This document shows, piece after piece, positions 7,463-29,435 of a stretch of 64,000 nucleotides of DNA. Source of the stretch: Escherichia coli (GTDB lineage Bacteria > Pseudomonadota > Gammaproteobacteria > Enterobacterales > Enterobacteriaceae); NCBI RefSeq assembly GCF_016903815.1, contig NZ_CP069973.1; one strand, 5' to 3'. Under the pieces are notes generated by a model, which made no database searches, had not been told where the DNA came from, and was given only the letters and a program-made list of their open reading frames with translations. A program made the translations under genes and the position numbers. The number at the start of each line of letters is the position of its first letter. Position 1 is the first letter of the stretch.

Positions 7463-9445
7463 TTACCATTGATAACTCACGAAAATTTTTCCATTACGAC
7501 CATCCTGTGGGATGCCTTGTGGCGACCAGTACTCTTTGTCGAAAGCGTTACCCAACACCAAAGTAGTGGTCATACCTTTGAGCGCCTGTTGTCCTTGATA
7601 ACTGACGTAGAAATCATTCACGCCATAGCCTGGTTGTTTGCTGTAACTGCTGCTGATATGTGTTGAGCGATCGGCAAACGTACCAACCCACCCAACAGAG
7701 AAGCCACTGTGAGCGATCGGAATATTCAGGGTACTGGTAACGGTATCCGGGTTAATGCTGGAGATATATTCCCCAGTATCGGTGTCTTTGCCGCGGGTAC
7801 GGTTATAGGCCACATCAAGGCTAAACAGATCAGTGGTATATTTCGTCATTACATCCCAGCCCCAGATTTTGGCGTTCGGGACGTTATACGACATAGTTGT
7901 CGCCGCCGCGAAATCGACGGTCGTGGAGATGTAATCCTTCGCTTTGGTATCAAAGTAGCTGGCTTTAAATTCCAGGGTATCATTGGACAACATCAGGTCA
8001 TCAAAACGCAGCCCAAAACCGTACTCCTGAGTTTCGTTAGTTTCCGGACGTAAGTTCGGGTTTGGCACCCAATAGTTGGTATAGAAGCGACCAATCGAGA
8101 AGTGCTTAGAATCGTTATACATTTCGCCCATCGTCGGGGCGCGGAATGCCTGGGCATATGAGCCAAATAACATCAGCCAGTTAGTCGGATTGATAGTCAT
8201 CCCCGCACGAGATGACCATTTGTCGGCATCAACATCTTTGTAACCGTCACTGCTACCGCGATAACTGTCATAGCGGGTTCCGCCAAGCAGGGTAATCGGC
8301 AGATCGCGTAAGGTGATCTCATCCTGTAGCCAGCCGGAGCTAAAATCGATTTTTGCTTGCGGGAAGCCCGTCGTCGCGCCGCCCGGATGTTGTTCCTGAC
8401 GATAATACTCACCGCCATATGTCAGTAAGTGAGAAGCGAAACTGTCGGCAAAGAGAGTGGAACGGTTCTCCAGCCTGGCTCCTTTTGTTATCTGTTCACG
8501 ATACTCGCCGGAACTCCCCGTGTTTTGCGCATTAATACGGACTTCCGACCAGTAAATTTTTGCATCTGCATTTAACCAGTCGTTGCCCTGCGGGGCGAGT
8601 TTATAAGAAAGCTGCGCATCGCGTTGAATTGTTGAACGATCAACCATCGGGTTGCTGCTATCAGAAGCCTCAACAGTCTGCGGATTTTTTGGTTCACGCG
8701 CGTCGTTGTTGTAGTAACGCACTAAACCGCTCAGAGACTGGGCTGAATCAATTTGCCAGGTCCCTTTCGCCAGCATGTTATTAATGGACTCGTCATTCGG
8801 CGCGGTTTCACCATTGCTCTGGCGTAAATCACCCCGACCGCGACTGGACCAGGCCACAATACCATCCAGATTTTCAGTTCGCCCAAACGCGCTCGCGCCT
8901 AATCCCAGGCTATGGTCCCCCGTGCCGCCAGTACCAAAGACACGAAAACCACTGCTTTGTCCTTCCTGCAATAAATCTTTTGCATCGACCGTATCGTAGG
9001 AGATCACTCCACCCAGCGCACCACTGCCATACAGTAATGCTGAAGGTCCGCGAACAATCTCAACACGCTTGATCAGCGCCGGATCGAGAAAAGTGCCATT
9101 CAGGTGTCCGGTATCCGTTCCCTGGCGAACACCATCGACAAGAACCAGCACGCCGCGATGATCATAGCCACGCATATTTACATCCTGACCGTTGGTTCGT
9201 CCGGTACCATCAAGAGTAATTCCAGGAACATGACGCAGCAAATCAGTGGCTGAAGTAGCCGTTTGATTTTCAGGAGCGGAAGTGTCGATGACGCTGACCA
9301 TCATAGGCGCTTCGAAGGAACTACGGGCATTCCCCGTTGCCGTAACGGTCATGGTTTCAGTAGCAAAAGCAAACGTTGGCAAGGTGGCAGAAACAGCCAA
9401 AGCCAACAAACTCAAACGCAACGAGGTAAATTGCGGACGTGACAT
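7463..9445 (-). CDS. chuA: TonB-dependent outer membrane haem/haemoglobin receptor ChuA (660 aa)
   Basis: Signal peptide, TonB-box-like N-terminus (ETMTVTA), plug and beta-barrel, C-terminal aromatic residue (ends ...FVSYQW). Confidence 0.95.
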   Translation of the reverse strand: MSRPQFTSLRLSLLALAVSATLPTFAFATETMTVTATGNARSSFEAPMMVSVIDTSAPENQTATSATDLLRHVPGITLDGTGRTNGQDVNMRGYDHRGVLVLVDGVRQGTDTGHLNGTFLDPALIKRVEIVRGPSALLYGSGALGGVISYDTVDAKDLLQEGQSSGFRVFGTGGTGDHSLGLGASAFGRTENLDGIVAWSSRGRGDLRQSNGETAPNDESINNMLAKGTWQIDSAQSLSGLVRYYNNDAREPKNPQTVEASDSSNPMVDRSTIQRDAQLSYKLAPQGNDWLNADAKIYWSEVRINAQNTGSSGEYREQITKGARLENRSTLFADSFASHLLTYGGEYYRQEQHPGGATTGFPQAKIDFSSGWLQDEITLRDLPITLLGGTRYDSYRGSSDGYKDVDADKWSSRAGMTINPTNWLMLFGSYAQAFRAPTMGEMYNDSKHFSIGRFYTNYWVPNPNLRPETNETQEYGFGLRFDDLMLSNDTLEFKASYFDTKAKDYISTTVDFAAATTMSYNVPNAKIWGWDVMTKYTTDLFSLDVAYNRTRGKDTDTGEYISSINPDTVTSTLNIPIAHSGFSVGWVGTFADRSTHISSSYSKQPGYGVNDFYVSYQGQQALKGMTTTLVLGNAFDKEYWSPQGIPQDGRNGKIFVSYQW

Positions 9446-9734
9446 AGCGATTCTCCATGAGGAAAATAAAAAATGCTGGCTGCCTGGGTTAATACCGGGG
9501 TGGCTGGCGAAAAATAAATTTATTTAAAATTCAGAGCGATAATATTCGCCGGGTGAGTTTACAGGCGTTTATATCCCATGAAATTGCCTGGTATCTCGGC
9601 AAATACGCAAAAGCACGCCCTCTTTGTCAGGCAAAACGATATGCCCCATCAGGAGTGAAGAGCGCTGTGCGTTATCCCTTGCAAATGCTATGGTTTTGTT
9701 ATCCATATGGTCGTGTTTTGTTAAGCGCGAACGT

Positions 9735-9753
9735 GATAATGAGAATTATTATC
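9735..9753. promoter_or_regulatory. Candidate Fur box in the chuA upstream region
   Basis: gataatgagaattattatc matches the 19-bp Fur consensus GATAATGATAATCATTATC at 16 of 19 positions; about 290 bp upstream of the chuA start. Confidence 0.55.
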
Positions 9754-10086
9754 GATCAATTTTTTATGATCAAGCTTTTTTTTAACCGCCATTAACACAA
9801 TAAACAGGGGGTTATGAAACTTATCCTGCGCCCTGTAAACCACTTTGTTTTTATGGTTATTCCCCCATGACCTCATTACTAAACTTTGTCGTTAGCAGTG
9901 ATAATTTTCTCTTCGCTTTGCTCTGCAAGCCTCGATATCTGTGGGTTCTCAGCTTTTTCCCGCGCTGAAATTTAGTCGGTAACAAGAACGTTAGCTGACG
10001 AAGCATCTTGATAAAAATCAAAAATAAATACGCTTGTAACGCCTTGCGTATTGAATCGACGGTTGTATTTCATATATAACTCAAAT

Positions 10087-10105
10087 GATAATAATGATCA
10101 TTCTC
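10087..10105. promoter_or_regulatory. Candidate Fur box upstream of the chuT operon
   Basis: gataataatgatcattctc matches the Fur consensus at about 15 of 19 positions; lies in the chuA-chuT divergent region just 5' of the chuT ATG at 10129. Confidence 0.55.
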
Positions 10106-10128
10106 AATTTGATAAGAGTTCTCATATT

Positions 10129-11043
10129 ATGCCAAGGATCATCACCAGGCCGTTTCTTTTTTCCCCACTAACGTTATGTATTTCAGCCGTGGCCTCTGCC
10201 GCGAAGACCGCGGTAAAACGAAAAAAAATGTTTACGGCAGTACTGGCTCTTAGCTGGGCTTTTAGCGTAACGGCTGCCGAACGTATCGTGGTCGCAGGAG
10301 GATCGCTGACGGAGCTAATCTACGCGATGGGCGCTGGCGAACGCGTGGTTGGTGTCGATGAAACGACATCTTATCCACCAGAAACCGCCAAACTGCCGCA
10401 TATTGGCTACTGGAAACAACTCAACAGCGAAGGCATTTTGTCACTTCGCCCGGATAGCGTAATTACCTGGCAGGATGCCGGGCCACAAATTGTGCTCGAC
10501 CAACTACGAGCGCAGAAAGTCAACGTCGTTACCCTGCCGCGTGTGCCTGCCACCCTTGAGCAGATGTACGCCAACATTCGCCAACTGGCAAAAACGCTAC
10601 AGGTTCCTGAACAAGGCGAGGCGCTGGTGACACAGATCAACCAACGCCTGGAGCGAGTACAGCAAAACGTGGCGGCCAAAAAAGCCCCGGTTAAAGCCAT
10701 GTTTATTCTCTCCGCAGGCGGAAGTGCGCCACAGGTTGCCGGTAAAGGCAGCGTCGCGGACGCCATTCTTTCGCTTGCCGGAGCAGAAAACGTCGCAACC
10801 CACCAGCAGTACAAAAGCTACAGTGCAGAATCACTGATTGCGGCCAATCCAGAAGTGATTGTCGTAACCTCACAAATGGTCGATGGCGATATTAATCGGC
10901 TACGTTCTATTGCCGGAATTACCCACACTGCCGCATGGAAAAACCAGCGCATTATCACCGTTGATCAAAACCTGATTCTGGGAATGGGTCCGCGTATTGC
11001 TGATGTCGTTGAGTCTTTACACCAGCAGCTTTGGCCGCAATAA
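10129..11043 (+). CDS. chuT: Periplasmic haem-binding protein ChuT
   Basis: Class III periplasmic binding protein. The ORF track opens at 10051 with TTG; I chose the first ATG (MPRIITRP...). A later start at 10228 (MFTAVLALSW...) is also possible. Confidence 0.8.
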   Translation: MPRIITRPFLFSPLTLCISAVASAAKTAVKRKKMFTAVLALSWAFSVTAAERIVVAGGSLTELIYAMGAGERVVGVDETTSYPPETAKLPHIGYWKQLNSEGILSLRPDSVITWQDAGPQIVLDQLRAQKVNVVTLPRVPATLEQMYANIRQLAKTLQVPEQGEALVTQINQRLERVQQNVAAKKAPVKAMFILSAGGSAPQVAGKGSVADAILSLAGAENVATHQQYKSYSAESLIAANPEVIVVTSQMVDGDINRLRSIAGITHTAAWKNQRIITVDQNLILGMGPRIADVVESLHQQLWPQ

Positions 11044-27916: not shown

Positions 27917-29314
27917 TTATTGTTTATCCTGCATATACGGCGTATAAACCCCGTTCAGACTGTGCAGGAAAGCTACGATATCATCCACATCCTCCTGCGG
28001 CAGCTCTTTGCCTACCTGATAGCGCAACATCAGTTTCACCGCCCCGTCCAGCGTCGGCACATCACCGCGATGGAAGTACGGTGCCGTTAGTGCAACGTTA
28101 CGTAAACCGGGTACTTTCTGACGCAATTTATCGCGCTCTTCTTTAGTCACATTCATACGACCAATATCCGCCGCCGTAATTTCACCAAAGTTAAAGTCTT
28201 TTTTCAGCCCCAACGGTTCGAAGGAACGTCCGCCGAGAATAATACCACCATGACAAGTTGCACATTTATTATCTTTAAATAATTGATAGCCTTTTTTCTG
28301 TTGTGCCGTCAGCGCATTCTCATCTCCACGCAACCATTTATCAAATGGGGAATCTGGCGTAATTAATGTTTTCTCAAATTCAGCAATGGCATCAGTAATA
28401 TTTTCGCCACTGAAACCTTGCGGATAGACTTCGAGGAACTGCGCTTTAAGCTGCGGATCTTTTTCCAGCTTAGCAATAATTTCGTCCCAGGATTTCGACG
28501 CCATTTCAATCGGATTCAACGGCGGTCCACCAGCCTGATCCTGCAATGTTGCCGCACGACCATCCCAGAACTGCTCAACGTTAAATACTGAGTTAAATAC
28601 CGTCGGCGCGTTAATCGGCCCCACTGCGCCACCAACACCAATCGATGTTTTTCTGCCATCGACGCCCCCCGCATTCAACGCATGGCAATGAGCGCATGAA
28701 ATGGTGCTATCCGCCGATAAACGGGGATCGTGATACAGCGCAAAACCCAACGCCACTTTTTGCGCATCGGTAGGCAGTTTTTGCGGGATGGGCTGCACCG
28801 GTTCATTGCGATGCTCCGGAGCAATGTCATTGCTGGCGTAATATTCCGCGCGCTGTTTTGCAATCCAGGCGAGTATTTCCGCCCGCTCTTCATCACTCAC
28901 CTTACCCGCCCAGTGTAGCGCGGTATAACGTGTTGGTGGCATGGTTTCATACTGCATCACCCATTCAATCTTATTCAGATCGCTTTGCGAAACGGGTTTA
29001 TCAGCCAGCAGAGCCGCACGCACGGCCTCGAGGTTAAAAGATTTATATCCAAGCTTAATGTCGTAATCCATCAACTGTTTCGCGCCAGGAATATAATAAT
29101 AGGCGGGTAATTCTGCCGAAGGCGTGTGGCAATAGTCGCATCCTTTTTCGCGGAGAAAGCCTAAAACCTTATTATTTTCACTGACAGCAGATGCCTGAAC
29201 ATCGGCCTGTTTACTGCGTTTATTATCGTGGTACCACACATAACCAGATAACCCTAAATAGCAAATCGCGACGCCAGCCAGGCCGATCGCGGTAATACGT
29301 GAGACCATTTTCAT
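27917..29314 (-). CDS. yhjA: Dihaem cytochrome c peroxidase YhjA/Ccp (465 aa)
   Basis: N-terminal membrane anchor and three CxxCH haem-binding motifs (CDYCH, CAHCH, CATCH). Confidence 0.9.
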   Translation of the reverse strand: MKMVSRITAIGLAGVAICYLGLSGYVWYHDNKRSKQADVQASAVSENNKVLGFLREKGCDYCHTPSAELPAYYYIPGAKQLMDYDIKLGYKSFNLEAVRAALLADKPVSQSDLNKIEWVMQYETMPPTRYTALHWAGKVSDEERAEILAWIAKQRAEYYASNDIAPEHRNEPVQPIPQKLPTDAQKVALGFALYHDPRLSADSTISCAHCHALNAGGVDGRKTSIGVGGAVGPINAPTVFNSVFNVEQFWDGRAATLQDQAGGPPLNPIEMASKSWDEIIAKLEKDPQLKAQFLEVYPQGFSGENITDAIAEFEKTLITPDSPFDKWLRGDENALTAQQKKGYQLFKDNKCATCHGGIILGGRSFEPLGLKKDFNFGEITAADIGRMNVTKEERDKLRQKVPGLRNVALTAPYFHRGDVPTLDGAVKLMLRYQVGKELPQEDVDDIVAFLHSLNGVYTPYMQDKQ

Positions 29315-29421: not shown

Positions 29422-29435
29422 TTGATAGGAATCAA
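29422..29435. promoter_or_regulatory. Candidate FNR box upstream of yhjA
   Basis: TTGAT-agga-ATCAA, a perfect match to the FNR half-sites, about 110 bp upstream of the yhjA start. Confidence 0.55.

Follow-up and report, generated by a model that had tools for sequence, protein, structure and literature searches.

The region between chuA and chuT poses two questions: whether the two Fur-box-like sequences within it are the operators of divergent iron-repressed promoters, and at which codon translation of ChuT begins. Both arise from a first-pass annotation of the E. coli DNA analysed here, a stretch of 64,000 nucleotides that we refer to as the window. The window contains the chu (shu) haem-uptake locus of pathogenic E. 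coli, as identified by the RefSeq features chuS, chuA, shuT/chuT, hutW/chuW, hutX and chuY and by the 100% identity of positions 9300–10400 to E. coli strain 7/2 and others. Of 5426 complete E. coli genomes, 2236 carry this region. In what follows, the transcription start sites, the binding of Fur to box 2 and the thermoregulation are taken from the literature; the sequence identities and the mapping onto the window come from the present analysis. Features and their coordinates are collected in Table 1.

Table 1. Features of the chuA–chuT region, with positions numbered from the first nucleotide of the window.
Feature	Position	Strand	Basis
chuA	7463–9445	−	RefSeq
shuA/chuA FourU RNA thermometer over the chuA Shine-Dalgarno sequence and start codon	9443–9474	−	Rfam RF02597; hairpin
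chuA 5′ leader, 291 nt, start 9736 (±1)	9446–9736	−	Sakai dRNA-seq via gap-free alignment
Fur box 1, putative operator of the chuAS promoter, −17 to +2 of the chuA start	9735–9753	.	17/19; Sakai start mapped
Candidate chuA sigma-70 promoter: −35 TTGATC 9773–9768, 17-bp spacer, −10 AATAAT 9750–9745	9745–9773	−	Consensus scan
Perfect FNR consensus TTGAT-N4-ATCAA, TTGATAAAAATCAA, candidate class I activator site	10008–10021	.	Consensus match, conservation
chuT promoter: −35 TTGAAT 10051–10056, 18-bp spacer, −10 TATAAC 10075–10080	10051–10080	+	Sequence reading; published fragment
Fur box 2, operator of chuTWXY, +1 to +19 of the transcript	10087–10105	.	16/19; published 5′-RACE, EMSA
chuT 5′ leader, 42 nt, shuT RNA thermometer; Shine-Dalgarno AAGAG 10114–10118	10087–10128	+	Oligonucleotide match; hairpin; published probing
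chuT (shuT), 304 aa	10129–11043	+	RefSeq; PDB ShuT 2r7a matches residues 49–304
Codons 1–27, probable relic signal peptide of a deleted TonB-dependent receptor gene, in-frame fusion	10129–10209	+	blastn
Putative own signal peptide of ChuT, KKMFTAVLALSWAFSVTA-A	10219–10275	+	Orthologue MKKL starts; crystallised protein from codon 49 (10273)
ATG at codon 34, lineage-specific allele	10228–10230	+	Allele comparison; 60-mer count

The near-consensus Fur boxes that the first-pass annotation had placed at 9735–9753 and 10087–10105 were recovered as the only sites in the 64-kb window with three or fewer mismatches to the 19-bp consensus GATAATGATAATCATTATC. Box 1, GATAATGAGAATTATTATC, matches at 17 of 19 positions (two mismatches) and box 2, GATAATAATGATCATTCTC, at 16 of 19 (three mismatches). 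The next-best Fur-like 19-mer, at 10081–10099, has five mismatches and overlaps box 2 at a 6-bp shift; beyond these three, every remaining 19-mer in the 64-kb scan has at least six mismatches to the Fur consensus. The overlapping site is consistent with an extended operator that may bind more than one Fur dimer. In Sakai-type alleles, where position 10093 is C, the same 19-mer has four mismatches. In a comparison of 12 Escherichia sequences, conserved islands stand out from a variable spacer at the promoters and Fur boxes. No base of box 1 differs between E. coli, E. albertii and two divergent lineages; in box 2, three of the 19 columns vary across the 12 sequences.

Both 19-mers might be chance AT-rich matches with no regulatory role, given that the intergenic region is AT-rich and that a consensus match is by itself no proof of function. 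Against this, two sites were observed where 0.01 was expected (mean over 100 dinucleotide-preserving shuffles, counting sites with three or fewer mismatches to the 19-bp consensus), and both lie in conserved islands of the variable spacer. There are also published EMSA, reporter and ChIP data, and a homologous Fur box occupies the same place upstream of a receptor gene in other genera (see below). The chance reading is effectively refuted and its probability is negligible.

Box 2 can be placed exactly by reference to S. dysenteriae, where Wei, Kouse and Murphy (2017) located the shuT start site 42 nt upstream of the start codon by RT-PCR and 5′-RACE, with a −35 element beginning 36 nt upstream of +1 (PMC5458455). 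A 62-nt promoter fragment, running from 26 nt upstream of the promoter to −1, was active in a lacZ fusion, and a 19-nt Fur site with three mismatches was found at +1 to +19. The 42-nt leader was sufficient for iron- and fur-dependent repression and was bound specifically by purified Fur in EMSA competition; removal of its first 5 nt abolished regulation. The authors called a Fur site lying wholly downstream of +1 unusual (PMC5458455). The published leader oligonucleotide, GATAATCATGATCATTCTCAATTTGATAAGAGTTCTCATATTATG, matches window positions 10087–10131 at 44 of 45 nt, the sole difference being an A in the window in place of the published C at 10093 (leader position 7, within box 2). This fixes the chuT +1 at 10087 and identifies box 2 with the published shuT operator. 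The two systems represent the same locus in sister lineages, with the same Fur site geometry and with leader and ATG identical at 44 of 45 positions; the 2017 study is silent on the origin of the leader, the N-terminal extension and the FNR box, which are considered below.

The same leader has been reported to be an RNA thermometer, on the basis of reporter and probing data (PMC5458455). In the minimum free energy hairpin that we predict for it, positions 14–18 pair with 29–33, setting U15 and U16 against the Shine-Dalgarno sequence AAGAG, which agrees with the published U15A/U16C mutant that destabilises the thermometer (PMC5458455). The predicted hairpin is no more stable than those of shuffled controls (z = −0.02), and structure alone is insufficient to identify the shuT thermometer. 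When the leaders of Escherichia and Citrobacter/Klebsiella were folded to a consensus, no pairs were predicted, so a thermometer outside Escherichia is without covariation support.

For chuA, Sy and Tree (2022) mapped the start by dRNA-seq in O157:H7 Sakai to 4,391,862, giving a 291-nt leader (PMC9002310). The window aligns with Sakai without gaps from the chuA ATG to this start, which places the chuA +1 at 9736 on the − strand and, as a result, box 1 at −17 to +2. The leader has about 10 substitutions relative to Sakai, is of the same length and contains no indels. The candidate −10 hexamer lies inside box 1, and the promoter region falls within a conserved island. Relative to the mapped start, this hexamer is at −14 to −9, two bases further upstream than usual.

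If transcription of chuA instead started near 9773, box 1 would lie downstream of the promoter, at about +21 to +39, and Fur would act as a roadblock as at chuT. An earlier sequence-based prediction of a 328-nt shuA leader and an RT-PCR bracket of 278–342 nt (PMC3660397) would accommodate this arrangement, as would the conservation that also extends upstream of 9773, to about 9808. However, the dRNA-seq included terminator exonuclease enrichment and gave the 291-nt leader in Sakai (PMC9002310), transferred here by a gap-free alignment, and the best promoter-like hexamers (9773–9745) agree with that start. A downstream box at chuA is thus very unlikely. Taking box 1 to overlap the core promoter, we infer from its sequence, its position and a ChIP-based regulon list that it is the Fur operator of chuA. 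In that list, obtained by Fur ChIP and RNA-seq in the uropathogenic strain CFT073, the direct Fur targets include chuAS and chuTWXYU. Dependence of expression on iron and fur has been published for chuA/shuA as well as for shuT. The earlier reading of the two boxes as operators of divergent iron-repressed promoters is thus supported at box 2 by EMSA, at box 1 by its position over the −10 element and start, and by the CFT073 regulon.

Further conservation was seen on the upstream side of the chuA promoter. The block 9754–9808, which extends about 35–40 bp past the chuA −35, contains an UP-element-like A-tract next to the −35 and two direct GATCAA repeats. On the + strand, 9804–9871 carries a strong Shine-Dalgarno-like AGGGGG, followed at a distance of 5 nt by the ATG (9815) of an 18-codon ORF, MKLILRPVNHFVFMVIPP. 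The stretch AGGGGGTTATGAAAC is conserved, but in other Escherichia the body of the ORF is divergent and differs by a 1-nt indel. A gene is less likely here than an element that binds protein or lies upstream of the promoter (−68 to −82 of chuA).

The chuA leader ends in the shuA/chuA FourU thermometer, the function of which was described by Kouse (2013; PMC3660397). The Rfam shuA_thermo model RF02597 matched at 60.1 bits (E = 1.2e-8), above its gathering score of 58, and the hairpin has a predicted energy of −8.2 kcal/mol (z = −1.9). The window thus resembles the published chuA/shuA system (PMC3660397, PMC9002310) in having its start within box 1, a leader of the Sakai length and a FourU element above threshold; further inputs to chuA in that system are the sRNAs CyaR, ChiX, RyhB and Esr41, and Rho. 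One other Rfam match, Hammerhead_HH9 at 10182–10257, scored 19.7 bits against a gathering threshold of 52 (E = 0.064) and was dismissed as chance.

The 683-bp chuA–chuT intergenic region therefore contains two separate back-to-back sigma-70 promoters, each with one Fur operator, with the transcription start sites 351 bp apart. The spacer comprises two independent operators and not a single shared bidirectional operator. The fepA–fes and fepD–ybdA/entS pairs are likewise back-to-back iron-repressed units with near-consensus 19-bp Fur boxes at their core promoters, and their divergent promoters are close or overlapping, so that Fur sites can be shared. In contrast, the 351 bp between the chu start sites leaves each promoter with its own box, and box 2 is wholly downstream of +1.

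We then turn to the start of chuT. A mechanical ORF list begins the gene at TTG 10051, with in-frame ATGs at 10129 and 10228, the first of which is the RefSeq start. Box 2 does lie inside this extended ORF (10051–11043), as had been pointed out, and just 5′ of the first ATG, ending 23 nt before 10129–10131. The suspicion that this cast on the extended call was justified: the transcript starts at 10087 and the TTG forms the first three bases of the −35 hexamer, so the TTG-started ORF is an artefact that begins outside the chuT transcript. The first-pass annotation had also used box 2 to argue for ATG 10228 as the true start. Since the box is upstream of ATG 10129, it raises no objection to that codon, and ATG 10228 is unsupported as a general start: roughly 4% of chu-positive genomes have an ATG there, and the other alleles sampled have TTG or CTG. 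The exact 60-mer around ATG 10228 was present in 94 of the 2236 chu-positive complete genomes. Codon 34 reads TTG in every other E. coli allele sampled, including Sakai, phylogroup B2, O145 and O169:H41, and CTG in E. albertii and two divergent lineages, which keep an ancestral ATG (see below); all 11 other Escherichia alleles examined thus have TTG or CTG.

The published pXG10 fusions, in which the shuT ATG initiates in vivo, used a gfp without its own start codon, from which it follows that ATG 10129 is able to initiate. Whether native ChuT derives from 10129 is a separate matter. Each of the 12 Escherichia sequences retains a start codon at this position, in frame and followed by an open frame; there is no frameshifting indel among them, with too few events expected for this to be significant. 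With a start at ATG 10129, the presequence is 48–49 residues long and contains two hydrophobic segments, an unusual arrangement in a periplasmic binding protein. Shine-Dalgarno pairing is weak at both candidate starts (−2.4 kcal/mol at ATG 10129 and −3.0 kcal/mol at ATG 10228) and accessibility is similar, so this test does not separate them. NCBIfam returned only sub-threshold BtuF-type hits on ChuT, which were uninformative on the start.

The origin of the long presequence became apparent from comparison with other genera. In Citrobacter, Klebsiella, Kluyvera and Raoultella, the chuT orthologue hemT is preceded on the same strand by an ORF for a TonB-dependent receptor of ~710 aa, with hemT starting 3 nt past the receptor stop codon. 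We found no Fur box directly upstream of hemT in these other genera; the Fur box is instead upstream of the receptor. By blastn, window positions 10073–10209 align with the 5′ ends of the Klebsiella and Citrobacter receptor genes at 74% identity, with E values of 8e-20 (the best, Klebsiella locus L015) to 1e-18. The aligned stretch covers the receptor promoter, leader and first 27 codons, and ChuT residues 1–25, MPRIITRPFLFSPLTLCISAVASAA, align with the receptor signal peptide, MLPRINNRPFFLSALTLCVSGAVSAA. In loci L007–L031 this homology lies at about 230–460. The possibility that the receptor is ChuA itself was rejected, the two sharing only about 29% identity in the plug.

Because the homology runs from the promoter to codon 27, we propose that in Escherichia the body of the receptor gene was deleted and its 5′ end fused in frame to chuT. 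In all likelihood codons 1–27 of chuT are thus a relic of this receptor gene, an origin first described here. Compared with the receptor-hemT-hutW-hutX-chuY operons of loci L007–L031, the Escherichia locus has a homologous FNR-like box, promoter, Fur box, leader, start and signal-peptide codons, shares an FNR-to-Fur spacing of 79–80 bp and has the same downstream T-W-X-Y genes. The difference is that the leader in those operons drives the ~710-aa receptor, whereas Escherichia keeps only its first 27 codons. ChuT/ShuT would therefore be an evolutionary chimera, in which the FNR site, promoter, Fur operator, leader, start and signal peptide of the receptor are fused to chuT; this comparison supports such a history well.

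The relic start has itself shifted. Positions 10126–10131 read ATG-TTG(Leu) in Citrobacter, ATG-ATG in divergent Escherichia and ATT-ATG in E. coli; the start has moved by one codon, with some start codon retained in every lineage. Within codons 2–30, pN/pS is 0.45–0.66, against 0.05–0.07 in the body of chuT. The amino-acid sequence of codons 2–30 is unconstrained and almost neutral, which fits an untranslated stretch and a cleaved presequence alike.

What followed the fusion at the original start of chuT can also be traced. Orthologues in other genera are without E. coli residues 1–30, and E. albertii and two divergent lineages retain chuT's own ATG (…CCCATGAAAAAACTG). A 9-bp deletion removes this ancestral ATG, with which the MKKL start begins, in 10 of 10 E. 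coli-type sequences (nine complete genomes and locus L003). The lost ATG would fall between 10218 and 10219, and it is retained in loci L004, L005 and L006 at about 2597–2605. New ATGs are present at codon 28 in B2 strains and at codon 34 in the window strain. Since codons 1–27 are homologous to the receptor 5′ end, the 304-aa ChuT is predicted to carry two tandem signal peptides, that of the receptor and its own. The chuT of locus L003 is 99% identical and comes from a contig labelled Collinsella sp.

The sequence MFTAVLALSW at ATG 10228 had been described as signal-peptide-like, and this was correct to the extent that it is part of ChuT's own signal peptide, following KRKK; it does not extend to a start at its ATG. 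A signal peptide begun at M34, MFTAVLALSWAFSVTA-AER, would have a hydrophobic core and, where small residues are expected at −3 and −1, V-T-A, with no Lys or Arg after the initiator. When the M34 start was assessed as a Sec signal peptide, the positively charged n-region was absent, and the KRKK n-region of the orthologues lies upstream of ATG 10228.

These observations bear on whether functional ChuT might nevertheless come from an internal start, at codon 34 (or codon 28 in B2), which would give it a conventional signal peptide of short length, with 10129–10227 being an untranslated or non-exported leader. The orthologues of Citrobacter, Klebsiella, Kluyvera and Raoultella, of 274–279 aa, have their MKKL start at codons 31–34, and crystallised ShuT begins at residue 49, directly past the second hydrophobic segment. 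An internal start would also suit the relic nature of codons 1–27 with their raised pN/pS, and the appearance of new ATGs at codons 28 (B2) and 34 (window lineage) after the 9-bp deletion. In addition, 160 database entries are annotated from codon 34, one of them from S. dysenteriae 1617, an entry that is a protein annotation in which the codon is not visible. However, the ATG at 10228 has the restricted distribution given above; in the majority of strains, O157:H7 Sakai among them, codon 34 is TTG and codon 1 is the only ATG ahead of the mature protein. Codon 34 is moreover not preceded by a Shine-Dalgarno sequence, and the M34 signal peptide is without a charged n-region. ATG 10129 initiates in reporters and is followed by the open chuT frame in each of the 12 sequences, so that ribosomes starting there would read through codon 34. 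We consider the internal start rather unlikely, and the product begun at ATG 10129 is probably the precursor of exported ChuT. The evidence is compatible with E. coli lineages relying on different initiation codons, 10129 everywhere together with codon 28 (B2) or codon 34 (window strain).

Public models of the ShuT/ChuT N-terminus disagree, giving proteins of 304, 271 and 330 aa. The 330-aa ShuT model (P0130, GenBank) starts at TTG 10051 and is attributed to a Bacteroides heparinolyticus MAG; it probably combines an over-extended ORF call with E. coli contamination of the MAG, and the Collinsella-labelled locus is a similar case. The metagenome-derived ChuT variants P0002–P0012 come from error-ridden assemblies and were left out. 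In the structure literature the haem ligand of ShuT is Tyr67, which corresponds to residue 94 of the 304-aa ORF. The offset of 27 could reflect a model from codon 28 or a numbering that includes a 21-residue tag, and we draw no inference from it.

Class I FNR sites are centred near −61.5, −71.5 or −82.5. The perfect FNR consensus upstream of chuT is centred at −72.5 from the chuT start, one base away from the canonical −71.5. The 64 kb contain just one further perfect match, and the chuT box is invariant in the 12 Escherichia sequences. In the other genera, 22 of 25 loci have an FNR box with no or one mismatch 74–80 bp upstream of the receptor Fur box, and the spacing from 10008 to 10087 in the window equals the FNR-to-Fur spacing found there. 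The box thus suggests anaerobic co-activation of an operon that includes ChuW and ChuY for anaerobic haem degradation. A literature search, within the library that could be searched, found no report of FNR control of chu. The other perfect match, TTGATAGGAATCAA at 29422–29435, lies between ccp and treF, some 108 bp 5′ of the ccp (yhjA) start codon at 29314 (− strand); ccp is FNR-activated, which makes this site an informal positive control.

It is possible, if doubtful, that internal initiation matters for exported ChuT or that FNR control is real and unreported. Exported ChuT would then come mainly from internal initiation or from a precursor with tandem signal peptides, and the chu operon would be co-activated by FNR under anoxia.

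Two Fur-controlled back-to-back promoters, with chuT translated from ATG 10129, very likely account for the region as a whole. For the mode of repression at box 1, we infer that under iron-replete conditions Fe2+-Fur would cover the chuAS −10 element and start (9736) and block open-complex formation. Fur on box 2, at +1 to +19 of chuTWXY (start 10087), would block initiation or promoter escape. When transcribed, box 2 would provide the 5′ arm of the hairpin that hides the Shine-Dalgarno sequence AAGAG at low temperature, and chuA would be controlled by its own FourU thermometer at 9443–9474. With two thermometers and two Fur operators, the chuA and chuT units would need both low iron and about 37 degrees C, with translation of chuT then proceeding from ATG 10129.

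Both operators, both start sites and both thermometers have already been published for shu/chu. For annotation, the lesson is that chuT, as called from six-frame ORFs, runs too far upstream, into its own promoter. The relic, the N-terminus and the FNR box are side results of possibly modest importance. Inheritance from a receptor gene would explain why a Fur site lies so unusually downstream of +1 within a thermometer leader, and the relic together with the lost ATG would explain the disagreement between databases on the ChuT N-terminus. The FNR box, in turn, predicts oxygen control of an operon with anaerobic haem-degradation genes.
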